Shown: one piece after another, positions 2,643 through 23,845 of the stretch
Layout of the letters: each line of letters starts with the position of its first letter
How positions within the stretch are numbered: position 1 is the first letter of the stretch
Source: an uncultured Dehalococcoidia bacterium
GTDB taxonomy: Bacteria; Chloroflexota; Dehalococcoidia; DSTF01; CAZFGZ01
Reading direction: 5' to 3'
DNA length: 34,018 bases
NCBI GenBank assembly: GCA_964518585.1
Contig: CAZFGZ010000004.1
Location: forward strand, 1 to 34,018
Made by a program: the position numbers and the translations under genes
The notes under the pieces: model-generated
The model's input: only the letters and a program-made list of their open reading frames with translations
What the model was told of the DNA's origin: nothing
The model's database searches: none

Positions 2643-3463
2643 TGACCGACCAGAGACCGCACATCATCGTCTGCATGAAGGTGGTGCCTCGCTCCGAGGA
2701 GATCCGCATCGAGCCTTCCACCATGACCATCGACCGGACCGGCGTGCGCTCTGAGATGAACCGGTCGGACATGAACGCCCTGGAAATGGCGCTCGCTCTG
2801 CGCGACGAGCACGGTGGGCGGGTCTCCACGATCTCTATGGGGCCGCCGGTCTTCGAGCAGTACCTGCGGGTGATGATCGCGGTGGGCGTCGATCACGCCT
2901 ACCTGCTGAGCGACCGCGCCTTCGCCGCCGCCGATACCCTGGCCACCTCACTCACCCTCGCCAAAGGCATCGAGAAGATCGGCGACTATGACCTAATCCT
3001 CTGCGGGGAGGAGTCCTCCGACGGAGCCACCGCCCAGGTGCCCCCGGGCATCGCCGAATGGATGGGCATTCCCCAGATCACCTACGCCACTGCGATGAAG
3101 CTCCTGCCGGATGACAACCGGGTGGAATCTCATCGGGAGATCCGGGGCGGGCATGAGGTGCTCTCGGTCCCGTTGCCGGCGGTGGCCTCCGTGAAGCTCG
3201 GCGTGAACGAGCCCCGCTTCATCGACATGGACCGGATCGACTGGGCTCAGACGGCTGACCTGGTCACCACCTGGAGCATCGCGGACCTCGGCATCGACCC
3301 CAAGACCGTGGGTCTGGACGGCTCCGGCACCATCGTGGAAGGGGTCTACGAGGCGCCCGCCGCCGAGCGCAAGCGTGAGTTCCTCAGGGGCTCGCCGGAG
3401 GAAGAGGCCAAGGCTCTCTTCGAGCGGATCAAGGAGTACCTCTCGCCCGGCGTTGAGGGCTGA
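2642..3463 (+). CDS. etfB: Electron transfer flavoprotein, beta subunit (copy 1)
   Basis: Typical EtfB/FixA N-terminus (IIVCMKVVP...MNRSDMNALEMALALRD...ISMGPP), plus SDRAFAAADTLATS and CGEESSDGATAQVPPGIAEWMGIPQIT. The start overlaps the etfA stop (TAATG), with GGAGGGAAG upstream. Confidence 0.9.
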   Translation: MTDQRPHIIVCMKVVPRSEEIRIEPSTMTIDRTGVRSEMNRSDMNALEMALALRDEHGGRVSTISMGPPVFEQYLRVMIAVGVDHAYLLSDRAFAAADTLATSLTLAKGIEKIGDYDLILCGEESSDGATAQVPPGIAEWMGIPQITYATAMKLLPDDNRVESHREIRGGHEVLSVPLPAVASVKLGVNEPRFIDMDRIDWAQTADLVTTWSIADLGIDPKTVGLDGSGTIVEGVYEAPAAERKREFLRGSPEEEAKALFERIKEYLSPGVEG

Positions 3464-7421: not shown

Positions 7422-8306
7422 CTAGAGGTGAGCGCGCTCCTCCAGGAACCGCACGATGCGCTCGGCTAGCTGCTCTGGCGAACCCTCGACCGGCCCGCCT
7501 TCCCGCTGCTCGATCCCCCCGCTGATGACCATCTGCCAGCGCTGCGCCGCCGGCATATCGCTGGGTGGAGCCGTCAGGCCACGCGTATCCGGCGGCGGCG
7601 GCGAGAGCGACACGACGCGGAGCGCCGAGCCCGCCGCTCCCACCTCCTCGGCCCGCAGGCCCAATTCGGCCAGCCCCCAATGCTCGATAGGCGCCGACTG
7701 CGACCGCAGGCGGACGCGCACCCGCGGATAGCGAGGGAGGTTGGCCCCAGTCTCGACCGTGCAAAGCGCCGGCAGCGGCGCCCTCTCCACCAGCCGATAG
7801 CCCCGCCCGGCCCGCCGCTGGGCGACCAGGGAGCGGCCCTCCTCCTGCACCTCCAGGCTCACCACGCTCGTGAGCAGAGGGATGTCCAGCAGCTCGGCGA
7901 GCTGGGGGCCTACCTGGCCGGTATTGCCGTCGGAGGAGCGGATCCCGCACAGCACCAGGTCCGCGCCGATGCGGCGCACCGCAGCGGCGAGGACGCGGGC
8001 GGTAGCCAGGGTGTCCGAGCCCTCAAAGGCATCGTCCCAGAGGCGAACGGCGAGGTCCGCGCCCTGAGCGAGACCGGCCCGCAGCGCCTCCTCGCACGGC
8101 GGGCGGCCCATGCTAACCGCAGTGACCTCGGTGTCCGGAAGAGCGTCGCGCACCTGGAGGGCCGCCTCAAGGGCATGAGCGTCGGCAGCGTTCAGGCTGT
8201 GCGCAAGGTTCTCCTCGTCCAGCGATAGGCTGCGAGGGGCTACCTCCAGAGGCTGCGCCGGGTCCACGACCCGGGCGACGCACACGACGATCTTCATCTT
8301 CGCCAT
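7422..8306 (-). CDS. etfB: Electron transfer flavoprotein, beta subunit (copy 2)
   Basis: KIVVCVARVVDP...NAADAHALEAALQVRD...VSMGRP, DDAFEGSDTLATA and CGIRSSDGNTGQVGPQLAELLDIPLLT are colinear with EtfB/FixA. It starts 9 nt downstream of the etfA copy 2 stop. Confidence 0.85.
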   Translation of the reverse strand: MAKMKIVVCVARVVDPAQPLEVAPRSLSLDEENLAHSLNAADAHALEAALQVRDALPDTEVTAVSMGRPPCEEALRAGLAQGADLAVRLWDDAFEGSDTLATARVLAAAVRRIGADLVLCGIRSSDGNTGQVGPQLAELLDIPLLTSVVSLEVQEEGRSLVAQRRAGRGYRLVERAPLPALCTVETGANLPRYPRVRVRLRSQSAPIEHWGLAELGLRAEEVGAAGSALRVVSLSPPPPDTRGLTAPPSDMPAAQRWQMVISGGIEQREGGPVEGSPEQLAERIVRFLEERAHL

Positions 8307-8315
8307 CTGTTCGTC

Positions 8316-9362
8316 TCAGGAGCCGCCAAGGGCGCGCAACAGGTCGGGCGGCGAGGGCCTCACCCCCACCGTCCGCCGCAGCCGCTCCGTCACCGCCGGG
8401 ACCACCTCAAGCACGTCCCCCACGATGCCCAGGTCGGCCAACTCGAAGATGGGGGCATGGCGATCGGTGTTGATGGCGATCACCGCCTTCGACTCCTTCA
8501 TGCCCACCACATGATGCACCGTGCCGGAGATGGCGCAGGCGATGTACAGACGGGGTGCCACCGTCCGGCCGGACAGCCCCACCTGCCGATGGGCCGGCAC
8601 CCAGCCCGCATCGACGGCGACCCTGCTGGCAGCCAGGGCACCGCCCAGCAGCTCGGCCAGCTCCTCCAGAAGGCGGAAGCCGTCCGGCCCGCCGATGCCA
8701 CGCCCTCCCGCCACGACAACTTCGGCGTCGGCCAGGTCCATGGTGGGCGGCGGGTCGCGGAAGACCCGCTCCACTGTGGTTCGCGGCGAGGCACCTTCCG
8801 TGCACACCTCCACCGGCACTACCTCAGGCTCCCTCGCCGGAGGAGCGGCCCGTTTGGCCCCGTAGCCCGCCTGAAAGGTGGCGATCTGGGGCCGGGCGTC
8901 CGGGCAGAGCACCGCAGCGGAGGCCCTGCCGCTGTAAGTGGGCCGGCTCGCCACCAGCAGGCCCTGGGCGTCCAGGTCCAGCCTGGTGCATTCCGAGGCC
9001 AGGCCGGTGCCCAGGCGGGCGGCCACACGCGGCGCCAGCTCGCGGACGCGCCGCCCCGCGGGGAAGGCCACGACGGCCGGCTCCTGCCGCCGGATAAGAG
9101 CCGCCAAGACGGGCGCGCACACGTCGGGATGTCCGTCGCCAAGCAGGGGATGGTCGGCCAGATAGGCGCGGTCGGCGCCACCCCGGCCCAGGGCCTGAGC
9201 CAACGTTCCCAAGCCCTCGCCGAGAGCCACCACGGCCAGCGCCGACCCCAGGCGGTCGGCAAGGGCGCGCCCTTCCGCCAGCAGCTCGAGCGACGCTTCC
9301 TCCAACTGCCCGGCACGGTGGTCAACGACCACCCACACCTCGCCCGGTGCCTGCTCGGCCAT
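8316..9362 (-). CDS. etfA: Electron transfer flavoprotein, alpha subunit (copy 2)
   Basis: The C-terminal FAD domain [11 protein letters not shown]...[10 protein letters not shown]...[29 protein letters not shown]...VIAINTD..APIF is diagnostic for EtfA/FixB. Confidence 0.85.
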
Positions 9363-9381: not shown

Positions 9382-10197
9382 TCAGCGCTCCACGGTGAAC
9401 CACTCGCCCCGGCTGAGGGTGAAGCCGCTGGGGTCGATCTCGGCCCGCAGGATAGTCAGTTCCTCCTCCGACGGCGGCGCCAGCTCCTCCAGGGGGTCGG
9501 CTATGAGGGGCTCGAACTCCATTCTGGAGAGCACCTCCTCCAGGGAGATCCAGGGGGCTATGGCCTGCAGCCTCATCATGTGGCTCTTCTCGTCGAAGCC
9601 GAAGATGGCCCGCTCGGTGATCACCAGGTACGGGCCAGTGTTGGCGGGAAGCCCGGCGCGTTCTCGCGCCCCCGGACTGCCGTCCAGGTAGCCGGGCGAG
9701 GAGATGAAGTCGAGCTTCTCCACGAACTTGCGCTTCTCCAGTTTGGTCATGACGATGGTCCGCCAGCACTGGGAGGCGATCTCGTTGCCCCCGCCCGGCC
9801 CCCCGAAGCGCCTCTCCGGCTTCTCGTAGGTGCCTCCGATAAAGGTGGAGTTGAGGTTGCCGTACTTATCGATCTGGACGGCTGCCAGGACGCCGTAGTC
9901 CATGTAGCCGAGGGCAGCGTGGAAGTCCACCTCGTTCATGCTCGTCCAGCGCACGGAGCGATAGTGAGAGCGGCTCGCTCCGAACATCATACGCCAGAGA
10001 GGGAAGGTGGGGCTCGGCGTGACCGCTCCCTCCTCCACGACGTAGCCCACGTCCGGCGTTCGCATCCGCTTGGCCAGCAGGACGGCCATGAGGGGCGGGC
10101 CGGCCATCTGCACGAAGTAGAGCTTGTCCTCCTCGATGACCCGGGCAATGCTACAGATGTTTGACTCGATGTCCGTAAAGGTGAGTTGCTCACTCAT
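9382..10197 (-). CDS. CoA-transferase, subunit B (glutaconate-CoA-transferase GctB-like, family I)
   Basis: Size (271 aa) and sequence resemble GctB-type beta subunits (VQIDKYGNLNST.IG...GPGGGNEIA). The start overlaps the subunit A stop (ATGA at 10194-10197). Confidence 0.8.
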   Translation of the reverse strand: MSEQLTFTDIESNICSIARVIEEDKLYFVQMAGPPLMAVLLAKRMRTPDVGYVVEEGAVTPSPTFPLWRMMFGASRSHYRSVRWTSMNEVDFHAALGYMDYGVLAAVQIDKYGNLNSTFIGGTYEKPERRFGGPGGGNEIASQCWRTIVMTKLEKRKFVEKLDFISSPGYLDGSPGARERAGLPANTGPYLVITERAIFGFDEKSHMMRLQAIAPWISLEEVLSRMEFEPLIADPLEELAPPSEEELTILRAEIDPSGFTLSRGEWFTVER

Positions 10198-11165
10198 TCG
10201 TAGTAGCCCTCCCGGACGGTCTCTTCCTGCCTCAGCTCCAGGAGCTTCTTGGCCCCGACGCGTTGCTCCAGCATCTCCTCATGGGAGGCCACACTGTGCA
10301 CCCACTTCTCGAGGTACTCGTCCATCTTGCCCTGGGCCTGAGCGCCCACGAACTCCAGCATGTGCTGTATGTCGCTGCCGTAGAGCCCGGGGACGCTTCC
10401 CGGGTAGGTGCCAAATGGGGCCACAACCACCGCATCCACGAAGTAGTAGGGGATGGTGGTCCTCTGGGGCTGCCGGCGAATGGCCTCGTTGTCAATGATC
10501 TCCTCGGTGGAGATGATGAGCTTCTTGGAGGCCATGGCGATCTCGAGCGGCGCGACGCCGGCGCCGAAGACGCGCGCGTTGCCGTGGATGTCGCACTGGT
10601 GAACGTGAATGATGCCCACATCCGGGTTGAGGGCGGGCACCACGCAGACCGGTTTCCCCAGATAGGGATCCTCGACGAGCTTGGCGGCGGAGCGGGCAAA
10701 GGAGTCGGTTCCCCCCATGTACCTCATGGGGAGGAAGGGCACCCCCATGGCCCCGGCGAGGAGGCGATAGGAGAGGGCGCCGTTCGTCCACTCGATGAAC
10801 TCGATCTCCCCCTTCTGGAGCGCCTGGTTAACGATGGGGCCCGTCTCCATCCAGCCCACGTCCACCTTGCTGACGCAGCCGCCGGCGACGAGCAGGGTGA
10901 CATCGGACCAGGTGAACTTCGCGCAGATCCAGAGGTTCTTCTTGCGCTGGCGGATGATCTCCCTGAACAGCGAAGCGGGTCCCCTGCTGGCGATGTTCTG
11001 GTCGTAGGCCACGTAGTCTCCGTCGCTCACGAAGCGGGAGACCGCGTCCTGCTCCGACATCACCTTGTCGACGGCCTTGCGTTGTTTGTGGGTGCGGACG
11101 TATTCCCTCAGACCGTCGGGATCCGGGGGGAGGAACTCGCCGACGCCCGCGGCTAGGACTTCCAT
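10194..11165 (-). CDS. CoA-transferase, subunit A (GctA-like, family I)
   Basis: 323 aa and GctA-sized. MSEQDAVSRFVSDGDYVA, the later LLAGAMGVPFLPMR and the GSD... segments are typical of the alpha subunit. It is translationally coupled to subunit B. Confidence 0.8.
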   Translation of the reverse strand: MEVLAAGVGEFLPPDPDGLREYVRTHKQRKAVDKVMSEQDAVSRFVSDGDYVAYDQNIASRGPASLFREIIRQRKKNLWICAKFTWSDVTLLVAGGCVSKVDVGWMETGPIVNQALQKGEIEFIEWTNGALSYRLLAGAMGVPFLPMRYMGGTDSFARSAAKLVEDPYLGKPVCVVPALNPDVGIIHVHQCDIHGNARVFGAGVAPLEIAMASKKLIISTEEIIDNEAIRRQPQRTTIPYYFVDAVVVAPFGTYPGSVPGLYGSDIQHMLEFVGAQAQGKMDEYLEKWVHSVASHEEMLEQRVGAKKLLELRQEETVREGYYE

Positions 11166-11238: not shown

Positions 11239-12072
11239 CTAGGTCTGCTGAGATTCCCCTCTCATCTCCTCCCCGATGGCGCCCTCGGGCATCAGGTTCA
11301 GCGCGTTCCTTAGATAACGCAGCTCCTCCTGGCGCCAGGGGAGAGGGGCCGGCCGCTGGATCATCTTCTCCCGCTTCAGCTCTTCCACTACCTGCGGGTC
11401 CCCCTTGAAGGGCTTGCCGTACTCCATCTCGAAGAAGAGCTGCTCCAGGGGAGCCTTCACCGTCTGCCCCCCCGCCTCGGGGGACTCCGCGGAATAGCCC
11501 ACGGACATGATGCAGACGGGCACCTGAGTCTCGGGCAGCTTGAGCTGTTTGGCGACCTGCTCGACGGTGGGGCCGCTCATGCAGCAGGTGCCCAGGCCCT
11601 CGTCATAGGCCACCAGCGTGGCCTGGGCCACCGCCTGGCCTACGTCCATGAACGCCAGCGGCGACACCGCCGCCTGCTTCCAGATGGGCGTGAAGGCGGC
11701 CCGAAGGAGCTTGTCTATCTGCTCCTTCGTCCCCTTCATGTCTCCCATGCCCACCCGGCCGGTGTCTGCCAGGTTGAGCAGGTCCTGGATCCACTTGTTG
11801 ACCTCGTAGGCCATGGTGTTCTGACACCACAGGATGAAGCAGGGGGCCGTCTGCATCTGCTGGTAGCCCAGGGCTGGAGTGAGGGCCTGGATCAGCTCCG
11901 GAGAAGCCTTATCCCTCCAGACGACGACGGCGTTGGTGGCGTTGATGTTGCCCACGCAGGACGCCCTTCGCGCCGCCTCCAGCATCTTCTGGACCTTCTC
12001 CCGCTCCACAGGCTTGTGCGGAAGGTAGAAACGGATACTCCGCCTGTTACCGAGGACCTCTTTGAGCTCCAT
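11239..12072 (-). CDS. Nitroreductase-family flavoprotein
   Basis: The N-terminal LGNRRSIRFY signature (RRS.R.F) and the later MDVGQAVAQATLVAYDEGLGTC region are typical of the nitroreductase fold. GAAGGAGG lies upstream of the ATG. The gene ends 73 nt upstream of the CoA-transferase genes on the same strand. Confidence 0.75.
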   Translation of the reverse strand: MELKEVLGNRRSIRFYLPHKPVEREKVQKMLEAARRASCVGNINATNAVVVWRDKASPELIQALTPALGYQQMQTAPCFILWCQNTMAYEVNKWIQDLLNLADTGRVGMGDMKGTKEQIDKLLRAAFTPIWKQAAVSPLAFMDVGQAVAQATLVAYDEGLGTCCMSGPTVEQVAKQLKLPETQVPVCIMSVGYSAESPEAGGQTVKAPLEQLFFEMEYGKPFKGDPQVVEELKREKMIQRPAPLPWRQEELRYLRNALNLMPEGAIGEEMRGESQQT

Positions 12073-13173: not shown

Positions 13174-14292
13174 ATGACGGCTGAGGCTCCCTTTCCCCTC
13201 TACCAGCGCTATCCCGAACTGGAGGCGACCCTACCCCGGCTCTCCCTCACCCGCCGGCCAACCCCGGTGGAGCGGCTTGAGAAGCTGGGCACACGCATCG
13301 GCTGCGACCGCATCTGGATCAAGCGGGACAGCCTCTCCGGGGCCATCTACGGCGGGAACAAGCCCCGCAAGCTCGAGTTCATCCTGGCAGATGCCCTGGC
13401 CAGGGGCACCCGCACCATCATCACCTTCGGCGGCCTGGCCACCAACCACGGCCTGGCCACCGCCCTCTACGGCCGCGAGCACGGCCTGCGGACCGCCCTC
13501 CTGCTCGTCCACCAGCCGGTCGACGACCACGTCCGCCGGCAGATCCTCCGCCTGCACCAGGCGGGCGCCCGGCTGCACTACACAGTCTCGTCGATGCGGA
13601 CGCGGCTGCTCGCGCCCCTCTTTCTCGTGCGCTACGTGGACTGGCGCCGACGCAAGTTGCCGTACCTCCTACCACCCGGGGGCTCGACACCACTGAGCAC
13701 GCCGGGATTCGTCAACGCCGCCCTCGAGCTCGCGGACCAGATCGCAGCGGGAGAATGCCCGGAGCCGGAGCACATCGTGGTAGCCCTGGGATCGAACGGG
13801 ACCGCGGCCGGCCTGCTGCTGGGCCTGCGCCTGGCAGGCCTTTCCAGCCGCCTGGTGGCCGTCCAGATCAGCGACATCGGGACGCTGGGCCCGGCCAGCG
13901 TCGTCGGCCTCGCCAACCGCGCCGCCGAGCTGATGCGACGGCGGGGCGCAGCCCTGCCCCCGGGGCGCCTGAAGCCCTCAGACGTTACCGTCGTTTCCGA
14001 CTGGCTGGGCCCCGGCTACGGCCACCACACCGCTGCGGGCCAGCGGGCGCAGGCCCTCCTCCGGGAGACCGAGGACGTCATCCTCGACCCCACCTACACC
14101 GCGAAGACGATGGCGGCACTCCTGGGCATGCTGGAGGACGGGCGTCTTAGCGAAGGACCCATCCTCTACTGGCACACCTACAACGCTCTGCCCCTGCCCG
14201 AGCCCGACCAATCGGAGTTCCGGCGGCTCCCGCGGGCCTTCCATCGCTTCTTCGAGGGGCCGGCGGAGCCCTCGGACACGGGCGCAGGCTAG
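13174..14292 (+). CDS. PLP-dependent ACC deaminase / D-cysteine desulfhydrase family protein
   Basis: LTRRPTPVERL, IWIKRDSLSG..YGGNKPRKLEF (PLP lysine motif GGNK.RKLE) and TFGGLATNHGLATA match the family. Confidence 0.85.
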   Translation: MTAEAPFPLYQRYPELEATLPRLSLTRRPTPVERLEKLGTRIGCDRIWIKRDSLSGAIYGGNKPRKLEFILADALARGTRTIITFGGLATNHGLATALYGREHGLRTALLLVHQPVDDHVRRQILRLHQAGARLHYTVSSMRTRLLAPLFLVRYVDWRRRKLPYLLPPGGSTPLSTPGFVNAALELADQIAAGECPEPEHIVVALGSNGTAAGLLLGLRLAGLSSRLVAVQISDIGTLGPASVVGLANRAAELMRRRGAALPPGRLKPSDVTVVSDWLGPGYGHHTAAGQRAQALLRETEDVILDPTYTAKTMAALLGMLEDGRLSEGPILYWHTYNALPLPEPDQSEFRRLPRAFHRFFEGPAEPSDTGAG

Positions 14293-14305: not shown

Positions 14306-16114
14306 CTAGGACCGTACCGAGTCCCTCGTCCGCACCAGGATCTGGTCGCCGTCCACCTTCACGTCGTAGGAGGGGATATCGCGCTTGAGGGCGCGGGGGT
14401 AGAAGGTGTAGAGCATGCGCCGCCACAAGGGGCGGTGCGCCCAGCAAGCCCAGGAGCCGTCGGCAATGTCGAAGCGGCACCCGTGCCCGGGGCAGGTGAC
14501 CACGGTCCCCTCCAGTTCGCCTTTGGCCAAACGAGAGCCCAGATGGGGACAGCGCGCCCCGAAGGCGAAGTAGGTGCCAGCGGCGTTGGCCACCGCTACC
14601 TCGAACCGGCCCAGGTCGGCCGTCATCATGGTGCCCTCGGGCACGTCCGAGACGCGGCAGACAGGTACGAACCGCGCAGCCAGCCGGGCGCGCGTTCGAG
14701 CCCGCTCCGTCAGGCTCAGCACCAGGGGGCCCGAGAGGGCGTGCAGCGCGAAGGCCGCCAGGAACGCGGGAACGGAGGCACCCAGCCAGGTCGCCTCCTC
14801 GCCCAGGGGGAAGGGAAGACGCAGCACCCCGGCGAAGAGCCCCTCCATGGCCCCCCGCCACCATGACAGCGTGCCCGGCTCGATCCAGTTGTAGATCAAG
14901 AAGCCGATAACCCAGACCGCGATGGCCGAGGGGTTCACGCCCCCCAGGTAGCTGTAGACACCCCGCTCATGGTAGAGGGCGTCCACCTCGAGGCGACGCC
15001 GCCGCAGCAGGAAGTAGTCGGCGGCCAGGATGCCGAAGAGGGGCACGAAGATGGAGCCCAGCAGGAGGAGGAAGCCCTCGAAGCGCAGGAAGTTCACGGC
15101 CAGGGCGAGCACGGTACACAGGACGCCGATAGCCAGCGAGGCCTGCCGCTGCCGCAGTTCTGGCGACACGTTCTGCAAGGACACGGAGGCAGAGTAGACG
15201 TTGGCGAAGGGCTGGTCCGTCTCCAGCCCCAGCACTATCACAATGCCGATGACACCCAACCCCGCCCCCAGGAAATAGCCCGGCAGGTCCTCCAGACCCA
15301 CCGCCGGCATGAACAGCATGCCCAGGGCGGTGAACCAGACGGTGGCCACAAAGAACCCCACGAAGGTACCCAAGAACGCGCCGCCCGACTTTCGAGAGAA
15401 GCGGGCGTAGTCAGCAGCGAGCGGCAGGAAGGCGACGGGCAAAGCGACGATGAGGTCCACGGCCTGCCAGAAGGAAGGCCACGCCCCGACGGAGGACCTC
15501 TCCAGCATGGTGGGCACGCCCGTCAGCCCGAATCCGAAGAGGCTGAACCCCGCCGCCACCAGCAGCGCGAACCAGATGGAGAACTTGCGCACCCACTGCC
15601 GCACCACCGTCTCCGGTCCCGCTGCGGCGAGGAAGGTCATAAGCCCGCCGAAGATGAGCACCCACAGGAGGCGCGTGTTCACCCCCAGGGCGCGCTCCGT
15701 CGCTGCCCCCGCCACCTCCGCCATGAGGGCAACCTGGAAGGTGCCCCACACGATGTTGCGCACTACCGTCAGCCCGCTGGCGACGTAGGAGCCCCGGATG
15801 CCCAGAGGCGCCCGATAGAGCACCATGCTGGGCGCGCCGGTGTCGGCACCGACCACCGCCGCCAGCGCCAGCAGCACGTTGCCGATCACCGCCCCGATGA
15901 TGACGGCCAGGATGGCCTGCCCCAGCCCCAGCGAGGGCACCAGGAGCGCCCCTGTGACCATCAGCACCAGGCTGAAGCCCAGGCTGCCCCAGAGGGCGAA
16001 GTTGTCGAAGGTGCCGAAGGTGCGCGCTTCCCGAGGGATGGGTCGGATGCCCCACTCCGCCGCGGCGGTGCGCGGCCGGCTCAGCGCCTGCAGTCGACCG
16101 GCCAGAACGGCCAC
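14306..16114 (-). CDS. Fusion protein: NCS1/CodB-CytX-type permease domain plus C-terminal Rieske [2Fe-2S] domain
   Basis: The first ~480 aa are polytopic and hydrophobic, with the N-terminal WGIRPIPREARTFG..DNFALWGS signature of purine-cytosine/CytX permeases. The last ~115 aa carry a complete Rieske motif, CPH-x16-CPGH (ARCPHLGSRL...VTCPGHGCRFD). The GTG start lies 18 nt after the alpha1 stop, and GGGAGAGAGGA sits in that gap. Confidence 0.8.
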   Translation of the reverse strand: MAVLAGRLQALSRPRTAAAEWGIRPIPREARTFGTFDNFALWGSLGFSLVLMVTGALLVPSLGLGQAILAVIIGAVIGNVLLALAAVVGADTGAPSMVLYRAPLGIRGSYVASGLTVVRNIVWGTFQVALMAEVAGAATERALGVNTRLLWVLIFGGLMTFLAAAGPETVVRQWVRKFSIWFALLVAAGFSLFGFGLTGVPTMLERSSVGAWPSFWQAVDLIVALPVAFLPLAADYARFSRKSGGAFLGTFVGFFVATVWFTALGMLFMPAVGLEDLPGYFLGAGLGVIGIVIVLGLETDQPFANVYSASVSLQNVSPELRQRQASLAIGVLCTVLALAVNFLRFEGFLLLLGSIFVPLFGILAADYFLLRRRRLEVDALYHERGVYSYLGGVNPSAIAVWVIGFLIYNWIEPGTLSWWRGAMEGLFAGVLRLPFPLGEEATWLGASVPAFLAAFALHALSGPLVLSLTERARTRARLAARFVPVCRVSDVPEGTMMTADLGRFEVAVANAAGTYFAFGARCPHLGSRLAKGELEGTVVTCPGHGCRFDIADGSWACWAHRPLWRRMLYTFYPRALKRDIPSYDVKVDGDQILVRTRDSVRS

Positions 16115-16132
16115 AGCGTTTCCTCTCTCCCT

Positions 16133-19015
16133 CTAGACGATCCTCTCCACGTCTACGGCGATGGCCCGGTCGATCTGCTGAGGCTGCCAGTTGTTCCGCC
16201 AGAAGCGCAGGTGACCGTAGCCCCCCGCCAGGTGCAGCCACTTGACCAGCCCGGGCACCACGGTGTCGTAGGGCTTCCAGTCGCGGTACTGGTACGGCTC
16301 CCAGGCGTGGTAGATGATGACCTCGCCGGGTCGCGCGCCCGAAGAGATCTTCACCCGCAGCTTGCAGGAGTCGAAGTCGTTGAACACGCGGACCTCCTCG
16401 TTGTCCCGGATGCCGCGCTCCTCAGCATCCTCGGGGTTCATGAAAATCGAGGGCTGGCCGCGATGGGTGCGCAGCATGAGCTTGTTGGCCGTCCAGGTGG
16501 AGTGGATACTCGAGCGCTGGTGCCCGCTGCAAAGGCGAAGCGGATAGTCGCCCCCCTGCCGGGGGTTGGGCTTGTGGACGGGGAGCTCCTCGCCGGCCTC
16601 CAGGAACCAGGGATGGTCGATGTAGAACTGGATGCGGCGCGTCAGGGTGGGATAGGGGACTTTCTTTACGACGTGCCAGCTCAGGGGGTTGATGGTCTCG
16701 TTGGGCTTGATGTCGGTGGCCAGGTTCAGGCCCGGCGCGTCCACGCCCGTGCCGGTGAAGCGAAGGATGCCGTGCTCGCGGAGGTCGTCGAGGGTGGTGC
16801 GCTCAGGGAAGGCGCCCGCGCGCACCGTGTCCAGCATAATGTCCTCAGCCAGCTTATCATCGTCATGCTCGCGGATCTCGCCGTCGTAGGTGAAGAGGCG
16901 GTACATGTCGTCGAGCTTGTAGGTTGTCTCATGCACGTCCTGGTACTCGCCGAACTCCCGCTCGCGGGCCCGCTCCTCGATCTTCTTGGAGAGCAGGCAG
17001 AATATCTCCCACTCCGGTTTGCACTCTCCGGGCGGCTCGGCCGCCTTCTCGGTGAGGGTGAGGAAGTTGACGTGGGCCGTGGGGAAGCGGAAGTCCAGCC
17101 TCTCGTAGAAGGAAGCGACCGGCAGCACGATATCCGAGAAGAGGGCGGTGGTGCTCATGCGCAGGTCCACGGTGACGATCTTCTTGAGCTGAGGCCAGAG
17201 CTTTTCCCGCAGAACCTTGAAGCCGCCGCGGGTTCGCCGCAGGGTGGAGCCGTTGACCTCGAAGAATACACGAGGCGGCCTGTCCGGGGGCGGCAGCATC
17301 ACCTTGCCCCACCACTCCTTGTCAACCGCCTCCTGGAAGTACTCGTCGAAGGTGCGCACCATGGCCGGATCGGACCAGTCGCGGCGGTTCCAGATGTCCT
17401 TGTAGCCGGCGTGCCAGTACCAGAAGAAGACCGCCGGGACCGTGATGGGGCTCATGGGGAGGACGGTGACCGTCTCCTGCTCGATGGCGACCATCTCCTC
17501 GGTCAGCGTCGGGTCTTCTTCCCTGAGCTCCTTCTCCAGGTTGGTCGCCTCCAGCGAGAACTCGAGGAAGCCCTCCATGCCCGGCCGCCTCTTGAGCGGG
17601 GTGAGCACGGCGAGCTGGCCGCTGTTCCAGCCCCGCATGCCGGTGCCCTTGCGGCCGAAGTTGCCCGTGAGGGCGAGGAGGAGGGCCATCGAGCGCTCCA
17701 TGAGGTCGCCGTGGAAGTGCTTGTTCGTGTCGAAGCCCTGGATGATGTGGATGTTGCGTGCCCGCATCACCATGTCCGCGAGCCTCTCGATAAGCGGCGT
17801 GCAGACGCCGGTGATGCTCGCGACCGTGTCGAGGTCGTAGGCCTGCACCTTCTCCTTCATCAGCTCGAAGGCCGGGGTGACCTCCACCTCCGTGCCATCG
17901 GCCAGGGCCACCTGGTAGCGACCCTCCAGGGCAGGGTCCACCTCACCCAGGGCCAGCGTGCCCCGAGGCGCCTCAACCGCCTTGCCGGCCTTCGTGTCCC
18001 AGAAGTAGAACTGGTCCTCCCGGCCCTCCCCCGTCACGTCGGGCTGCCGCAGGAAGCGCCGGTTGTCCAGGCGGACCAGCAAGGGCAGGTCGGTCTGGTC
18101 CTTGACGAAGGCCTCGTTCACCTTGCCCTCGTCCAGGATGATCTTGCAGAGGCCCAGGGCCAGGGCGGCGTCGCTGCTCGGCACCACGGGGACCCACAAA
18201 TCGGTGTGGATGCTGGTGGCGCTGTAGTCGGGCGCGATGCAGACCACCTGAGAGCCACGGTAGCGGGCCTCGGTTATGTAGTGCACGCAAGGGATGCGCG
18301 TGTACAGCGGGTTGCAGTGCCAGACCATGATCAGGTCGGCGTGCACCCAGTCGTCCACCGAGCTCACGAAGTGGAACTTGCCGAAGGTCTCGTATATGCC
18401 GACGCTGAAGTCGCCGATCTGCCCGTCGGCATCGAGGACGGTGGCGCCGAGGAGGCGGGCAAGGCGCCAGCCGGGGATGGAGCCATGGATGATGGCGTGG
18501 CCGCCGCCGAACTCGTATATGATCGATTCCGGCCCCACCTCCTCGATGGCGTCGAGGACGGCGTCGGCGGTTTCGGTGAGGGCCTCGTCCCAGGAGATCC
18601 GCTCCCAGCGGCCGGAGCCCCGCTCGCCCAGCCGGCGCAGCGGGTAGCGCAGTCGCTCCGGCGCGTAGACTACCTGGCTGAAGGTGCCCCCCTTCTGGCA
18701 GCCGCGAGGGTTCATGTCGGGCACGTCCTCCTCGATCTGGGGATAGGTGCCCGCCTGCTCCTCCCGCCAGATGAGGCCGTCCTTCACGTAGGTCCGCCAC
18801 AGGCAGGAACCCGGGTAGCAGTCCACGCAGTGCGTGCTCCACACGACCTTGTCCCAGGTCCAGTGCTCGCGATAGAGGTCTTCCCAGCCCCGGTAGATGA
18901 CCTCCTCGAGAAGCTCCTCCTCTTTCTCGCGGACGCAGCCCAACTGGGTGAGATACAGCGCCAGGACGGACGCCCCGGTCGCCTTCAAGAAGCCGCGCCG
19001 TGAGATCCTCGGCAT
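16133..19015 (-). CDS. DMSO-reductase-family type II molybdopterin oxidoreductase, alpha subunit, Tat-signal paralogue (alpha1)
   Basis: Starts at ATG 19015 (GGAGGT upstream) with MPRISRRGFLKATGASVLALYL, which carries the twin-arginine motif. The FS0 motif is H-x3-C-x4-C-x34-C (THCVDCYPGSC...NPRGC). IGDFS aligns with the Mo-ligating Asp segment of NarG. Length (~960 aa) and FYIDHPWFLEAGEELPVHK fit the EbdA/SerA/DdhA-sized enzymes. Confidence 0.9.
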   Translation of the reverse strand: MPRISRRGFLKATGASVLALYLTQLGCVREKEEELLEEVIYRGWEDLYREHWTWDKVVWSTHCVDCYPGSCLWRTYVKDGLIWREEQAGTYPQIEEDVPDMNPRGCQKGGTFSQVVYAPERLRYPLRRLGERGSGRWERISWDEALTETADAVLDAIEEVGPESIIYEFGGGHAIIHGSIPGWRLARLLGATVLDADGQIGDFSVGIYETFGKFHFVSSVDDWVHADLIMVWHCNPLYTRIPCVHYITEARYRGSQVVCIAPDYSATSIHTDLWVPVVPSSDAALALGLCKIILDEGKVNEAFVKDQTDLPLLVRLDNRRFLRQPDVTGEGREDQFYFWDTKAGKAVEAPRGTLALGEVDPALEGRYQVALADGTEVEVTPAFELMKEKVQAYDLDTVASITGVCTPLIERLADMVMRARNIHIIQGFDTNKHFHGDLMERSMALLLALTGNFGRKGTGMRGWNSGQLAVLTPLKRRPGMEGFLEFSLEATNLEKELREEDPTLTEEMVAIEQETVTVLPMSPITVPAVFFWYWHAGYKDIWNRRDWSDPAMVRTFDEYFQEAVDKEWWGKVMLPPPDRPPRVFFEVNGSTLRRTRGGFKVLREKLWPQLKKIVTVDLRMSTTALFSDIVLPVASFYERLDFRFPTAHVNFLTLTEKAAEPPGECKPEWEIFCLLSKKIEERAREREFGEYQDVHETTYKLDDMYRLFTYDGEIREHDDDKLAEDIMLDTVRAGAFPERTTLDDLREHGILRFTGTGVDAPGLNLATDIKPNETINPLSWHVVKKVPYPTLTRRIQFYIDHPWFLEAGEELPVHKPNPRQGGDYPLRLCSGHQRSSIHSTWTANKLMLRTHRGQPSIFMNPEDAEERGIRDNEEVRVFNDFDSCKLRVKISSGARPGEVIIYHAWEPYQYRDWKPYDTVVPGLVKWLHLAGGYGHLRFWRNNWQPQQIDRAIAVDVERIV

Positions 19016-19282
19016 GGCTACGCCCCTACCTCCGGCCATCGAATCGCCAGAGGCGCAGCCCTAGCCGAGAGCCGTCTCGCCATAGCTGCAACACCACCCC
19101 AGCAGGGGATCGAGCATCCTCTCATCTCTGACCGCGTCCCCGCACAAGCATGGCGCGCCTCGCAAGGGCGAAAGCGCGCCACGAATCTCGCTGCGACACG
19201 ACCGTTCCCTATCGGGAAGGCCCAAGACCTGGACACCGCCCAGCCCTTCTAGAAGCCTTCGCCCCCTTCTATGTCTGGCCCG

Positions 19283-20320
19283 CTAGCTCCACTTGATCTC
19301 CGCAGGGTCCTGGACGAAAGGCCCAAACAGGTCCAACCAGTGATACACGATCAGCGTGTCCATCAGCTCGGACGGCTCACCCCTCCTCCTCTTGTCCAGC
19401 TCCTCCCTCAGCGTGTCCAGGGCCTTGTGCACCCCCGGACCGAACAGATGCTCCTGATACTCACTCGGGATGCGCGGCGTGGACTCGTCGAAGCTGCCGT
19501 CCTCGTTCAAGCGGAGCGGGGCCAGCGGCGGGATGTAGAAGACGTTAGGCTCTGTACCATACTCCGCGTGCAGGGGCAGCGCGACCTCCCACTCGTTCAC
19601 CAGCCTGTGGATGGGCCCCTTGGCGTCATCCAGATAGCCGACGAAGACCAGCCGGCCGGGGCACTGCCGCGCACAGGCCGGCGCCACGTTCTTCTCCAGG
19701 CGCGGGAAGCAGAACATGCAGTGCTGGGCGACCTTGCGCACATGGTTGAAGTAGATCTTCTTGTAGGGGCAGGCCTCCATGCAGAAGCGATAGCCCCGAC
19801 AGAGGTCCTCGTTGCGCAGGACGATGCCGTCCTCCTGCCGCTTGTACATGGCGCCTCGAGGGCAGGCCTCAACGCAGGCCGGGTGTGTGCAGTGATTGCA
19901 GAAACGCGGCAGGTAGAAGAAGTAGCTGTTGGGGTACTCGCCGGCGCCCTCGTCCTCATCCCAGTTCGGGCCCCACGTGGGGGCAGGGCCCTTGGCCTGG
20001 AGGAAGACTGAGTTCCCCTTGCCCTGGTAGAACACCTCTTCGTAGTTGAAGTCCCAGCCGCCCCCGAACTCGTCGCGGGTGGGCAGGTGTCCCAGGACGG
20101 GGTTACCGTCGCGATAGCCGCCCCCCATCTGCTCCCAGTCCTTTGGCGTCCCCTTGCCGGGCTGCGTGTTCACCGAGCACCACCACTGGTACTCCTCGCC
20201 CTCCTCCCGGGTCCACAGGACCTTGCAGCCCACGGAGCAGGTCTGACAACCGATGCACTTGTTGAGGTCCAAGACCAGCGCCAGCTGGTGCTGAGGAGCG
20301 GTCCGCTCTTGCCTAACCAT
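19283..20320 (-). CDS. DMSO-reductase-family type II, beta (NarH/EbdB-like four-cluster Fe-S) subunit
   Basis: The cluster motifs are CIGCQTCSVGC, CNHCTHPACVEACP, CRGYRFCMEACPYKKIYFN and CMFCFPRLEKNVAPACARQCP. The third has an aromatic residue where NarH has Trp, which implies a 3Fe-4S cluster. The likely start is ATG 20320 (GGAGGT 4 nt upstream) rather than 20353. Confidence 0.9.
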   Translation of the reverse strand: MVRQERTAPQHQLALVLDLNKCIGCQTCSVGCKVLWTREEGEEYQWWCSVNTQPGKGTPKDWEQMGGGYRDGNPVLGHLPTRDEFGGGWDFNYEEVFYQGKGNSVFLQAKGPAPTWGPNWDEDEGAGEYPNSYFFYLPRFCNHCTHPACVEACPRGAMYKRQEDGIVLRNEDLCRGYRFCMEACPYKKIYFNHVRKVAQHCMFCFPRLEKNVAPACARQCPGRLVFVGYLDDAKGPIHRLVNEWEVALPLHAEYGTEPNVFYIPPLAPLRLNEDGSFDESTPRIPSEYQEHLFGPGVHKALDTLREELDKRRRGEPSELMDTLIVYHWLDLFGPFVQDPAEIKWS

Positions 20321-20368
20321 GCCTACCTCCTGCCTGTGAGATCCCATCGGCAAGCGAGGGGACCCAAC

Positions 20369-21019
20369 CTACGCCTCTAGCTCCAGCTCACGCCATTCCC
20401 TGGAGAAGGACTTGAGCCCGGCGCGCTCCCCCTTGGAGCCCTCCCAGACGGCGAAGGCCACCTTCACACTCTTGCCAGCCTCCAGTTGCACCGCGGCCTC
20501 GGTCTCGCCCTTCGTCGCGAGCGGCCGACTCAGCACGACCTGCCAGGCGCCCGCGTCCCAGCGGGCTCCCGTGGCGATCTGGCCGCCGCCCGTCTCCTCC
20601 ACCGTGCCCAGGCCGCCAGCGGCCAGGTTCTGGGCGGCATTCTCCAGGTCGGCCCGCCAGAACCAGGCGTTGACCGGCTGGCTCTGGCTGCCCATCGTGT
20701 TCAGGGGAGCATCCCCCTTCAGCGGGAAGAGGATGCCCGCCCCGTCGGGGCTGTTGCCCTCCAGGAAATCAAGGTTCTGGGTAGAGTCGGGCCACGCGAG
20801 CAGGAAGGCGATGTCGCTGCCGTTGTGCGCGGCGCGCACGGTGAGGTTCTCCAGTTTCCCGTAGGGGCGCTCGCGGGCCCACAGTTGGACATAGCGGCTG
20901 TTCTGATTCTCGGCGGGCGCGGGGCCCATAGCGATGGTCTCGGCTGGCACGTCCCGCCACTGGGACGCTGTGGGGTCGAGCAGAACCTTAGAATCGACGT
21001 CAACCCGCTTAGCTTGCAT
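20369..21019 (-). CDS. DMSO-reductase-family type II, gamma subunit, EB_dh (ethylbenzene-dehydrogenase gamma-like) heme-b domain, no signal peptide
   Basis: 216 aa with an EbdC/SerC/DdhC-like sequence (DIAFLLAWPD, FPLKG...NTMGS, NAWFWRAD, VAFAVWEGSKGERAGLKSFS). Candidate Met and Lys heme ligands are present. GGGAGGGAGG lies upstream of the ATG. An in-frame TGA 11 codons upstream, with no intervening start codon, excludes a leader peptide. Confidence 0.8.
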   Translation of the reverse strand: MQAKRVDVDSKVLLDPTASQWRDVPAETIAMGPAPAENQNSRYVQLWARERPYGKLENLTVRAAHNGSDIAFLLAWPDSTQNLDFLEGNSPDGAGILFPLKGDAPLNTMGSQSQPVNAWFWRADLENAAQNLAAGGLGTVEETGGGQIATGARWDAGAWQVVLSRPLATKGETEAAVQLEAGKSVKVAFAVWEGSKGERAGLKSFSREWRELELEA

Positions 21020-21076: not shown

Positions 21077-23845
21077 TCACCTCGCCGCCCCGTCGATCTT
21101 CGCCACGTCCAGGTGGATAGCCCGGTCGATGGGGACGGGCTGCCAGTGAATTGCCCGGTAGCGCAGGTGGCCGTAGCCGCCGGCCAGGTGCAGCCACTTC
21201 ACCATCCCCGGCTCCACGTTGGCCGCGTCCTTCCAGTCGCGGTGCATGTAGGGCTCAAAGCCATTGTAGATGATCAACTGCCCCGGCTGCACCGCGGGCG
21301 AGATCTTCACCCACACGGTCATCGAGCCCATGTCGTTGAACGCCCGCACCTCCTCGCCGTTGTCGATGCCCCGCTCGCGGGCGTCCCCGTCGTTCATGAA
21401 CATGAAGGGCCGCCCCTGGTGGGTGTTCAGCAGTATCTTGCTGGTCATGTTCATGGAGTGGATGCTCCAGCGGTTGTGGCCGGAGGTCAGCAGGAAGGGA
21501 TAGTTTCCGCCCTGCATGGGAGTGTCCTTGTGCACGGGGAGCTCCTCCCCCGCTTCCAGGAACCAATCGTGGTCGATGTAGAACTGGGCGCGCCGCGTGA
21601 GGGTGGGGAAGGGCATCTTCTTCTCGGTGTGCCAGCGGAATGCCGCGTGGGTCTCATTGGGCTTGAGGTCGGAGGCCTGCGCCAGGGCCATGGAGCTCCG
21701 GCCCCAGTCGATGAACCGCACGTGACCCTTCTCCCGCATCGTCTCGAGGGTGGTGCCCTCGGGCAGAGTCCCCAGGAGGGCGCTGTCCCGCACCATCTCA
21801 TCCAGTATCCTGTCGGTGTTCTCCAACCGCCCGTTCAGGGTCATGGTCTCGTACATGTTCTCGAAGTTGATCGTGGCTCCGGAAGGGAACTGGAGCTCTG
21901 TCAGCCCTCTGGCCTTGGCCCGCTCCTCCAGCTTCTTGGTCAGAGCGAGGTTGATATGCCACTCATCCATGGCCTCGCCCGGCGGGTCCACTGCCTTGTC
22001 GGAGAGGGTGAGGTTGAGGACGTGGCAGGAGGTGTAGGTGAAGTTGGGCTTCTCGTAGTGGTGGGCTGCCGGCAGCACGAAGTCGGAGTGGAGGCCGGTG
22101 GTGCTCATGCGCGGGTCAATGCTCACGATCATCTTGAGCTTGGGCCAGAGGTGCTTCAGGAGCATGCCCTGGCCGCCCCGCTGGCGCCGCAACAGGTTGC
22201 CGCCGATCTCGAAAATCACGCGGGGCTCCGTCTCCTGCGGAGGGAGCATGAAGCCCTGCCACCAGCCCTTCTCGATGCCCTCCTTTATGTACTCGTCGAA
22301 GGAGCGGGGCATACTCGGGTCGTTCCATTCCTTCTTGTTCCAGATGTCGCGGTAGCCGCAGTGCCAGTACCAGAAGAAGACCGGCGGTGTCCAGCCGCCC
22401 ATGGCGGCGGCGCGGTAGCTCGACTCCGCCATCACCATCTCGTCGGTCATGGTGGGGTCCTCCGCCTTGACGGCATCCAGCATGGAGTCTCGGAGCGCGA
22501 TGGCCCGGCGGCTGGCCTCCTCACCGAGGTCGGTCTTCATCGCCGCCAGGCCCATCCCGTCGAACATGCCGACGGCCCAGCTCCGCGCGCCTGACCCCTT
22601 CCTGCCCCAGTTGCCGGTAAGGCCCAGCAGCAGCATCATGGAGCGCTCCATGAGGTCACCGTGGTAATACTTGCCGGCGTTCCAGCCCATGAGGGCGCGG
22701 GTGCGCTTCACGGCAGCCTTCCGCGCGACGCTTCGGATAGAATCCGGGTGCACGCCGCAGATCTTGGAGGCCTCCTCCGGGCGATATTCCTGCAGCCGCT
22801 CCTTGAGCAGCACGAAGGCCGGGGTCACCTCCACCAGCGTCCCATCGGAGAGAGCGGCCTGGTATGCTCCCTCCAGGGCGGGGTCGACCTCGCCGAGGGC
22901 GAGGGTAGCCCGGGGTGCTTCCGCCACCTTGTTGGTCTTCGTGTCCCAGAAGTAGAACTGGTCCTCCAGTCCCCCCTCCTGCATGTCGCTCCCCCGCAGG
23001 AAGCGCCGGTTGTCCAAGCGCACCAAGAGGGACAAGTCCGTCTGCTCCTTGACGAAATCCACGTGGTGCAGGTTCTCCTCGACGAGGACCTGACACATGG
23101 ACAAGGCGAGGGCAGCATCGGTGCCCGGACGCACCGGCAGGTGATAGTCGGCGTGGATGGCCGAGGGGCTGTAGTCCGGGGCGATGGTCACCACCTCCGC
23201 ACCCTTGTAGCGACCCTCCGCGACGAAGTGATACCAGGGGATGGATGTGTACACGGGGTTGATCTGCCAGAGCAGCGTGAGGTCGGTGTGGAACCAGTCG
23301 TCGCAGCTGCTGGCGGGGTCGAACTTGCCGAAGGTGACGTAGATGCCGGGGCTGAAGTCGTTGATCTCCGCCTGAAGGTCCGTGGTAGTGCCACCCAGGC
23401 GCATGAGGAAGGCGCCGGCCAGCATCAGCGTCTGCATCCCACCCTCCGCGGGCGTGCCGATGCGCATGATCGAATTGGGCCCCTGCTCCTGCAGCGCATC
23501 CAGTATGGCATCCGCGATCTCGCCGAGAGCCTGATCCCAGGAGACCTGCTGCCACTTGCCGGACCCGCGCTCGCCCACCCGCTTCAGGGGATGCAGCACC
23601 CGCTCCTTGCCGTAGAGGAGCTGGCTCCAGCAGGCCCCCTTCTGGCACCCCGCGGGGTTCATGTCGGGGACACCCTCCTCGATGGTGCGGAAGGTGCCGG
23701 CCTGCTCCTCGCGGAGAACCACCCCGTCCTTCGAGTAGACCCGAAACGGGCAGTTGGTGGGGTAGCAGTCCACAGCGTGGCTGCCCCAGGTGACCCTGTC
23801 CCACTTCCACATGTCCCGGTAGCGGTCCTCCCAGGTCCCAGGCAT
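21077..23845 (-). CDS. DMSO-reductase-family type II molybdopterin oxidoreductase, alpha subunit, leaderless paralogue (alpha2)
   Basis: Colinear with alpha1, sharing identical blocks (LVRLDNRRFLR, EDQFYFWDTK, TLALGEVDPALEG, HGDLMERSM, VFFWYWH, VKWLHLAGGYGHLR). It has the same H-x3-C-x4-C-x34-C motif (SHAVDCYPTNC...NPAGC) and INDFS at the Asp-ligand position. It starts MPGTWEDRYRDMW, which aligns about 40 residues into alpha1. AAGGAG lies 6 nt upstream, and an in-frame TGA lies 10 codons upstream. Confidence 0.9.
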   Translation of the reverse strand: MPGTWEDRYRDMWKWDRVTWGSHAVDCYPTNCPFRVYSKDGVVLREEQAGTFRTIEEGVPDMNPAGCQKGACWSQLLYGKERVLHPLKRVGERGSGKWQQVSWDQALGEIADAILDALQEQGPNSIMRIGTPAEGGMQTLMLAGAFLMRLGGTTTDLQAEINDFSPGIYVTFGKFDPASSCDDWFHTDLTLLWQINPVYTSIPWYHFVAEGRYKGAEVVTIAPDYSPSAIHADYHLPVRPGTDAALALSMCQVLVEENLHHVDFVKEQTDLSLLVRLDNRRFLRGSDMQEGGLEDQFYFWDTKTNKVAEAPRATLALGEVDPALEGAYQAALSDGTLVEVTPAFVLLKERLQEYRPEEASKICGVHPDSIRSVARKAAVKRTRALMGWNAGKYYHGDLMERSMMLLLGLTGNWGRKGSGARSWAVGMFDGMGLAAMKTDLGEEASRRAIALRDSMLDAVKAEDPTMTDEMVMAESSYRAAAMGGWTPPVFFWYWHCGYRDIWNKKEWNDPSMPRSFDEYIKEGIEKGWWQGFMLPPQETEPRVIFEIGGNLLRRQRGGQGMLLKHLWPKLKMIVSIDPRMSTTGLHSDFVLPAAHHYEKPNFTYTSCHVLNLTLSDKAVDPPGEAMDEWHINLALTKKLEERAKARGLTELQFPSGATINFENMYETMTLNGRLENTDRILDEMVRDSALLGTLPEGTTLETMREKGHVRFIDWGRSSMALAQASDLKPNETHAAFRWHTEKKMPFPTLTRRAQFYIDHDWFLEAGEELPVHKDTPMQGGNYPFLLTSGHNRWSIHSMNMTSKILLNTHQGRPFMFMNDGDARERGIDNGEEVRAFNDMGSMTVWVKISPAVQPGQLIIYNGFEPYMHRDWKDAANVEPGMVKWLHLAGGYGHLRYRAIHWQPVPIDRAIHLDVAKIDGAAR

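Follow-up and report, generated by a model that had tools for sequence, protein, structure and literature searches.

Introduction

What does a Rieske [2Fe-2S] domain do at the end of a solute transporter, and why does the gene for both stand directly behind that of a molybdoenzyme? The question is posed by a gene (14306..16114, minus strand) in a 34,018-nucleotide stretch of DNA, here called the window, from an uncultured soil bacterium of the Dehalococcoidia (GenBank assembly GCA_964518585.1, contig CAZFGZ010000004.1, positions 1 to 34,018 of the forward strand). Its product joins an NCS1-type permease to a C-terminal Rieske domain and is annotated by NCBI merely as 'cytosine permease', a label that overlooks the Rieske domain as well as its operon setting. 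Upstream lies alpha1, which encodes a catalytic subunit related to ethylbenzene dehydrogenase (EBDH) and bearing a twin-arginine (Tat) signal. A preliminary description of the locus had proposed that the fusion protein serves alpha1 as a membrane anchor and electron entry or exit module, replacing the heme subunit in the manner of the arsenite oxidase Rieske subunit. To our knowledge, secondary transporters of the LeuT superfold do not carry redox cofactors. We find that the fusion is genuine and under purifying selection, that its Rieske domain is of the ferredoxin type and predicted to be cytoplasmic, and that the permease, rather than the Rieske domain, is the constant companion of alpha1.

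The fusion gene

The reading frame runs uninterrupted for 602 codons from a GTG start (16112-16114) to the stop codon at 14306-14308, and the gene is kept in loci L005, L001 and L002 and in the other members of its protein cluster. The permease body, an NCS1/LeuT-fold unit of twelve transmembrane (TM) helices, comprises residues 1-469 (14708..16114, minus strand) and carries the signature WGIRPIPREARTFG..DNFALWGS at residues 21-44. Pfam Transp_cyt_pur (PF02133) matches residues 25-411 (14882-16042, minus strand) with E 7e-42 and 144.2 bits against a cut-off of 23.5. The Rieske domain comprises residues 482-596 (14327..14671, minus strand). Pfam Rieske (PF00355) matches residues 482-556 (E 9.3e-16, 58 bits, cut-off 20.3) and Rieske_2 matches residues 482-595 (E 7.8e-08, 32.6 bits, cut-off 27). 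The ligand motifs C522-P-H524 (14543..14551, minus strand), invariant in our Rieske alignment A3, and C541-P-G-H544 (14483..14494, minus strand) are separated by 16 residues, which fits the CxH-x15-17-CxxH set. The second motif is kept in the window, L005, L001 and the fragments P0121 and P0291 and reads CPRC in L002. Residues 447-481 (14672..14776, minus strand) contain TM12 and its helical cytoplasmic extension, including the basic linker ERARTRARLAAR, and constitute the fusion junction. Both Pfam domains score above cut-off and the junction is conserved; the protein does consist of two fused domains.

Alpha1 and the fusion gene do not overlap. The alpha1 stop codon (TAG, 16133-16135) is followed by 18 nt and then by the GTG; read from alpha1 to the fusion gene, the gap (16115..16132, minus strand) is AGGGAGAGAGGAAACGCT and includes the Shine-Dalgarno-like GGGAGAGAGGA. 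No promoter-like or terminator-like site was found in or around it, which supports co-transcription of the fusion gene with the Tat-signal-bearing alpha1, as the preliminary description had expected. Its statements on the sequence (the 602-residue frame, the permease signature, the complete motif CPH-x16-CPGH and the GTG 18 nt past the alpha1 stop) are likewise correct. Only 'translationally coupled' is too strong, since the genes do not overlap and the second has a Shine-Dalgarno sequence of its own.

An artefact of assembly, in which two genes are falsely fused, is rejected because the junction (..LTxRARTRxRLxxxFVPxCR..) is common to many independent assemblies. A database search for the same architecture gave at least 12 sequences sharing it, from NCBI, ENA, Logan and JGI assemblies. 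The protein of L005, a Dehalococcoidia metagenome-assembled genome, is 91% identical and has the same flanking genes. The fusions P0002 (L001) and P0003 (L002), 76% identical, come from Logan contigs of two different sequencing runs, and P0121 and P0291 are C-terminal fusion fragments on short JGI and ENA contigs. The 90% cluster of the window protein holds seven further members (NCBI, ENA, Logan, JGI). Pairwise ratios of non-synonymous to synonymous substitution (dN/dS) are 0.08-0.38 for the Rieske domain, 0.10-0.28 for an insertion within it (residues 556-581) and 0.17-0.25 for the permease body; by this measure the Rieske domain is maintained by purifying selection.

These data bear on whether the fusion is accidental or decaying, that is, a small neighbouring Rieske gene that became fused to the permease gene when a stop codon was lost and that serves neither transport nor operon. 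The narrow spread, confined to one shallow subclade, would fit such an origin, as would a source family of free-standing orphan genes common in Chloroflexota, the loss of a ligand histidine in L002 and a C-terminal duplication in P0391. Selection on the domain is nevertheless as strong as on the permease (dN/dS down to 0.08), the fusion is retained across lineages that are just 63-76% identical, and the junction is a continuous conserved helix, not a read-through spacer. Because of the selection signal, we regard a functionless fusion as improbable.

Two sequences deviate within the Rieske domain. In L002 (P0003), the second ligand motif at residues ~542-545 is CPRC(Q) and not CPxH, and the fourth ligand His is missing; this is read from a single 2.6-kb Logan contig and could be a sequencing error. 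In P0391 (628 residues, from the 90% cluster of the window protein), the last ~26 Rieske residues are tandemly duplicated (..DPHALERDIPPYDVKADGDQILVRTKDSVRP).

Overall fold and topology

The best-scoring named family for the permease is CytX (TIGR02358), with 259.2 bits over residues 37-411, under the equivalog cut-off of 309.85. TIGR00800 (ncs1) gives 161 bits, under its trusted cut-off of 353.1; Pfam and the fold do place the protein among NCS1 transporters. The AlphaFold model of the fusion has twelve long helices, a mean per-residue confidence (pLDDT) of 89.6 and a predicted TM-score (pTM) of 0.86, the latter being dominated by the large domain and not covering the inter-domain orientation. 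In Foldseek comparisons (TM-scores normalised to the target here and below), the permease body matches the cytosine permease CodB at 0.87-0.88 (7qoa, E 8e-14) and the hydantoin permease Mhp1 at 0.82 (4d1a). By sequence, the permease matches Mhp1 (E 1e-17) and CodB (E 6e-12) in the PDB. Both share the 12-TM LeuT-type fold at just 19-22% identity to the fusion permease. Trp117 and Gln121 of Mhp1 align with W123 and Q127; Ser312 and Thr313, which we take to be the Na+ site of Mhp1, align with Thr299 and Asp300. Mhp1 and CodB have no extra domain and no linkage to a redox enzyme, whereas the fusion protein has both. On the model, the permease is a genuine 12-TM NCS1 (LeuT-fold) secondary transporter, with transport activity predicted.

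The alignment with Mhp1 spans TM1-11, and therefore the last helix is TM12 with no extra helix following. A thirteenth helix that would place the Rieske domain outside is ruled out by this alignment and by the model. Residues 447-480 form one continuous helix (pLDDT 86-98) that runs straight into the first Rieske strand and is conserved in all fusion sequences. For an arrangement with both termini inside, the predicted inside loops hold 22 lysine and arginine residues and the outside loops 4; the linker ERARTRARLAAR contributes 5 of the 22. There is no hydrophobic segment or twin-arginine motif after the linker in the fusion protein, nor an arginine pair with a hydrophobic export segment before the Rieske domain. 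As the domain follows TM12 of a 12-TM fold with both termini inside, it is predicted to be cytoplasmic by homology to Mhp1, the model, the charge counts and the lack of an export segment. The side of the membrane on which it lies, left open in the preliminary description, is thus predicted to be the inner face.

The Rieske domain

The domain is, by its sequence, of the ferredoxin type, with cluster binding predicted. Its best PDB sequence matches are the ferredoxins 5bok, 2qpz and 1fqt. Superposition on 5bok, 3dqy, 1fqt and 2qpz gives TM-scores of 0.83-0.88 with root-mean-square deviations of 2.0-2.4 Å; over the wider set of ferredoxins from oxygenase systems (BphF 1fqt, NDO 2qpz, TDO 3dqy, CarAc 1vck, T4moC 1vm9 and 3-nitrotoluene dioxygenase 5bok), the range is 0.78-0.88. 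These soluble, cytoplasmic-type proteins have the same CxH...CxxH ligands and no disulfide. They differ from the domain described here in that the latter is attached to a transporter, has an insertion of ~25 residues (556-581) and has no oxygenase or reductase gene near it in the 34-kb window.

The Rieske proteins of arsenite oxidase (AioB) and of the bc1/b6f complexes are alike in that a Rieske cluster accompanies a molybdenum bis(pyranopterin guanine dinucleotide) (Mo-bisPGD) enzyme or a membrane complex. They are high-potential proteins with a disulfide bridge, exported by the Tat pathway to the outer face. The domain of the fusion protein, in contrast, is predicted to be cytoplasmic and not exported. 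Its cluster loops read CPHLGS and CPGHGC; the CxHxGC/CxCH disulfide pair is absent, and neither L001 nor L002 conserves the additional cysteines C546 and C557. Phe, not Tyr, follows the second motif (CPGHGCRF). We take the domain to lack the Ser/Tyr hydrogen-bond donors that raise the redox potential of the bc1/AioB type; it is probably of low potential. The analogy with the arsenite oxidase small subunit, drawn in the preliminary description, fails on this class difference, since the domain has neither the disulfide cysteines nor the export signals.

The insertion at residues 556-581 (ACWAHRPLWRRMLYTFYPRALKRDIP; 14372..14449, minus strand) is modelled with low confidence (pLDDT 50-61). The stand-alone relatives P0129, P0131, P0137 and P0140 share it, as does the TM-anchored P0128. 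A role as a fusion-specific interface is rejected, since the free-standing subfamily has it too, and an amphipathic membrane-seeking helix was dropped, the hydrophobic moment being just 0.37-0.50, which is unremarkable. On these alignments, the insertion is the hallmark of a free-standing Rieske subfamily of ~116-121 residues, the source of the domain. HMMER searches with the Rieske part against 1.84 billion representative proteins gave one protein below E 1e-30, which represents the cluster of the fusion itself, and among the best 150 a permease is joined to this Rieske type only in that cluster. The next matches are free-standing proteins of ~116-121 residues with the same insertion, common in Chloroflexota and found also in Methanosarcinales and Coriobacteriia, and hence the domain was recruited from this orphan family. 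The comparison with the permease tree described below indicates that it was added once, in one shallow sublineage. The stand-alone relatives lie in housekeeping contexts that differ from one to the next, with neighbours such as archaeal ribosomal genes, shikimate-pathway genes, phosphoenolpyruvate carboxykinase with hemerythrin, and sulfur-carrier genes.

Related Rieske domains occur in other settings. P0128 has a two-TM anchor, P0146 is a protoglobin-Rieske fusion, P0151 and P0215 are Rieske-DUF2231-Rieske membrane proteins, and P0222 is a DAO-Rieske-Ferric_reduct fusion; P0130 is a further relative among these fusions. Tandem multi-Rieske proteins exist as well, one of which (P0134) has 1806 residues and 15 matched stretches. 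The Rieske-DUF2231-Rieske, DAO-Rieske-Ferric_reduct and P0128 proteins resemble the fusion in carrying a related Rieske domain (E 1e-12 to 1e-29 against the query) on a membrane module. None of their partners is a solute transporter, unlike the fusion described here.

The permease clade and the molybdoenzyme operon

Alpha1 (16133..19039, minus strand; 968 residues) is an EBDH-like catalytic subunit of the type II dimethyl sulfoxide (DMSO) reductase family. It scores 994 bits with TIGR03479, above cut-off, and its best PDB match is the alpha subunit of ethylbenzene dehydrogenase (2ivf, 791 bits; perchlorate reductase gives 525 bits). Its N-terminus, MAGGRGVAMPRISRRGFLKATGASVLALYLTQLGC (encoded at ~18935-19039), is a canonical twin-arginine signal with SRRGFLK, and the SRRxFLK signal is kept in all alpha1 orthologues examined.

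A scan of genome collections gave 53 related permease loci. A neighbour-joining tree groups all permeases with an alpha1-type gene directly upstream in one clade, and the four full-length fusions form a single subclade nested in it. The order alpha1-then-permease was found in 13 genome loci (the window included) and 25 metagenome loci, ~38 in total, from Chloroflexota and mostly Dehalococcoidia. Wherever upstream DNA is available for a permease with 55% or higher identity to the query, it contains an alpha1-type gene. A lack of conserved linkage to molybdoenzyme genes, which the preliminary description had named as a finding that would speak against it, is thus far from what the 13 genome and 25 metagenome loci show. 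In L006, L007, L070, L071 and L073, the order is alpha1-permease-gamma-beta(-delta); on L068, L069, L084 and L092, edge contigs that break off upstream of the permease, permease-gamma-beta(-delta) is seen. Being embedded in such loci, the permease is by gene order a core member of the operon.

The Rieske domain is not. It is found in none of the 25 metagenome pairs, and ~34 of the 38 alpha1-permease pairs lack it, which means that alpha1 does not need it. No separate Rieske gene was found by tblastn (E 1e-3 to 1e-4) in any alpha1-linked locus with a non-fused permease; the lone match, in L136, lies 4 kb from a permease that is not linked to alpha1.

The sister clade is CytX, a putative hydroxymethylpyrimidine transporter, and a thiamine pyrophosphate (TPP) riboswitch precedes the permease in L011, L013, L017 and L029. 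CytX shares with the permease described here the ETD..FAN.YS segment of TM8 and a conserved loop between TM11 and TM12. The permease differs from it in its place in a molybdoenzyme operon, in having no TPP riboswitch (no Rfam hit was obtained anywhere in the window), in clade-specific changes in TM1, TM3, TM7 and TM8, and in the added Rieske domain. The clade-specific residues are S48 (TM1), R119 and N120 (TM3), and T258, P270 and L297 (TM7/TM8); the family-wide transport motifs are kept. TM1 and TM3 carry substrate-binding residues in Mhp1, and S48 aligns with Gln42, presumably a substrate-site residue of that protein. The changed residues together with the retained motifs suggest a working transporter of altered specificity.

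In eight sister loci (L007, L068, L070-L073, L082 and L121), an open reading frame (ORF) of 220 codons lies between alpha1 and the permease (L007 9299-9961, plus strand). It has two EXXH motifs (DEARH and DERFH) and is weakly similar to di-iron proteins of the ferritin-like kind (DUF455, aldehyde-deformylating oxygenase and R2-like oxidase). No homologue of it was found in the window.

The beta (Fe-S) subunit (19283..20353, minus strand) scores 493 bits with TIGR03478, above cut-off. The gamma (heme b) subunit (20369..21019, minus strand) matches Pfam EB_dh at E 7.8e-31 and has no signal peptide; gamma subunits of this kind lack a Sec signal in the related loci as well. A paralogous catalytic subunit, alphaA (21077..23845, minus strand; 922 residues), the first one of the operon, is 52% identical to alpha1 and has no Tat signal, and the same holds for its orthologues in L003, L005, L010, L037, L049 and L147. 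The gene set suggests one cytoplasmic and one exported enzyme with beta and gamma shared or duplicated; in the window there is one beta/gamma set for two alpha genes.

Against this background, the proposal that the fusion protein anchors alpha1 and conducts its electrons can be weighed. The gene adjacency is tight and conserved, the permease sits in alpha1-gamma-beta-delta operons, and the window has a single beta/gamma set for two alpha genes. The Rieske domain is however placed in the cytoplasm, while alpha1 has a canonical Tat signal; since the two would lie on opposite sides of the membrane, the domain cannot wire exported alpha1 directly. A single cluster does not reach across the membrane, and the permease body lacks a cofactor motif. 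The beta gene and the gamma (EB_dh) gene, which encodes the usual heme subunit, are present. The fusion protein itself matches none of the gamma or anchor families (EB_dh, NarI and NrfD-type), Pfam giving just the Transp_cyt_pur and Rieske families. Most alpha1-permease pairs do without the domain, which is also of the wrong class, ferredoxin-type with no AioB/bc1 disulfide cysteines. The proposal is largely refuted by the modelled topology, and we consider it very improbable.

Proposed function

We tentatively favour, at somewhat short of an even chance for the reading as a whole, a permease for the substrate or product of the exported enzyme with the Rieske domain as an electron carrier tethered to its inner face. 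The part concerning the permease is the firmer one: transport of what the exported enzyme consumes or produces is the most likely assignment. Outside the cell, alpha1 would convert a small and polar heterocycle that probably resembles a pyrimidine or a hydantoin, and the permease would move that substrate or its product across the membrane. From the CytX ancestry and the EBDH-like catalytic subunit, it is tempting to guess at a pyrimidine-like heterocycle with an alkyl substituent. The associations of EBDH-family enzymes known to date are with hydrocarbons and steroids; a dedicated NCS1 clade in the EBDH-like operons of uncultivated Chloroflexota suggests that the substrates are polar heterocycles, and the transporter offers a practical handle on the substrates of the enzymes.

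The Rieske domain, at the inner mouth of the transporter, could then be a tethered one-electron carrier for a redox enzyme of the cytoplasm whose substrate is the imported compound. The partner might be the complex formed by the Tat-less alpha paralogue, or else an enzyme of the di-iron or oxygenase type; the ferritin-like protein of the sister loci would be an example of the latter. Rieske ferredoxins are known to supply di-iron enzymes, as T4moC does T4moH. We prefer a carrier because the characterised homologues are all carriers, the operon family has Tat-less alpha paralogues, and sister loci encode a di-iron-type protein; as a separate step, it is possible and rather less secure than the reading as a whole.

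Several observations weigh against this assignment. L002 lacks the fourth ligand His, a poor fit to obligatory electron transfer, although it is known from a single short contig. No ferredoxin reductase, Rieske oxygenase or ferritin-like gene was found in the 34-kb window, and the stand-alone Rieske relatives P0125, P0127, P0280, P0126 and P0345 have no recurrent partner in their gene context. TM12 lies at the periphery of the NCS1 fold, away from its moving core, and the geometry implies neither gating nor docking. No transported substrate can be named from the sequence, and the export of alpha1 is deduced from its signal peptide.

Some of these observations would be easier to reconcile with a redox-gated transporter, in which the Rieske domain senses the cytoplasmic redox state, O2 or NO, and the state or integrity of the cluster switches the permease. 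In the model, a rigid connection holds the domain to TM12 on the cytoplasmic side. Also in favour of a sensor, no electron-transfer partner gene was found in the 34 kb, the close Rieske relatives are orphan genes, one of them (P0146) is fused to a protoglobin sensor domain, and a sensor or structural role would better tolerate the altered ligand set of L002. C-terminal cytoplasmic regulatory domains are common in the LeuT superfold (BetP and NKCC), and NKCC1 is among the Foldseek fold matches. Yet among characterised homologues the nearest are without exception electron carriers, the rocking core of NCS1 transporters does not include TM11-12, regulation of a transporter by a Rieske domain was not found in the literature searched, and most of the permease clade works without the domain. 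We judge a redox-sensing gate unlikely on balance, and almost as likely as the carrier.

The tethered carrier and the gate may also be seen as variants of a more elaborate arrangement, a metabolon that would convert outside, import, and oxidise inside. The Tat-exported EBDH-like hydroxylase would modify a polar N-heterocycle, possibly a methyl- or alkyl-pyrimidine, at the cell surface, and the NCS1 permease would import the product. The Rieske domain would exchange electrons, in either direction, with a cytoplasmic enzyme bound where the solute leaves the transporter (a role for which the Tat-less alpha paralogue and a di-iron protein are candidates), or would gate uptake according to redox state. 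We hold this fuller scheme to be rather doubtful. Were it true, then, as far as our searches reach, no secondary transporter that links solute flux to electron flow through a redox cofactor of its own would have been described before.

Whichever of these roles applies, a conserved and selected [2Fe-2S] fusion lends itself to testing whether solute uptake is under redox control or whether compounds are channelled where they leave a transporter. Both domains are ordinary; the combination and the linkage of the permease to a molybdoenzyme would seem to be new. Neither an NCS1-Rieske fusion nor such a linkage was found in the literature, of which our searches covered a part, and this is weak evidence of novelty, in keeping with the preliminary description, which knew of no such fusion. 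The fusion is phylogenetically narrow and may surprise specialists in transporters or in molybdoenzymes.

Other features of the locus

A third type of alpha gene follows the fusion gene in L001 (2543-2887) and L002 (2119-2556). It has no Tat signal and, as read from the translated N-termini, its first FS0 ligand is of the Cys type (C-x4-C-x3-C) and not of the His type. No gene for a NarJ-like delta chaperone was found in the window, including the gap between beta and alpha1 (19040-19282). In L003, L007 and L037, a delta gene occupies that position; it is placed differently in L049, and L005 and L010 have none.

On the plus strand, an ORF of 1344 codons (14969-19003) runs antisense to the fusion gene and alpha1. 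The two minus-strand genes are strongly supported by homology, shadow ORFs are common in G+C-rich DNA, and we take the plus-strand frame to be one.

Elsewhere in the window, there are two separate EtfAB-like gene pairs, at 424-3463 (plus strand) and 7422-9362 (minus strand). A CCG/4Fe-4S dicluster protein (424-1626) adjoins one of them, and genes for two CoA-transferase subunits (9382-11165), a nitroreductase (11239-12072) and a flavin amine oxidase (4460-5986) are close by. Such a neighbourhood suggests electron-bifurcating or acyl-CoA metabolism. A gene for a pyridoxal phosphate-dependent enzyme (13174-14292, plus strand), similar to D-cysteine desulfhydrase, 1-aminocyclopropane-1-carboxylate (ACC) deaminase or cysteate sulfo-lyase, converges on the fusion gene. 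The stop codons of the two genes are 13 nt apart. The gene occupies the same position in L005, and not in L001 or L002.

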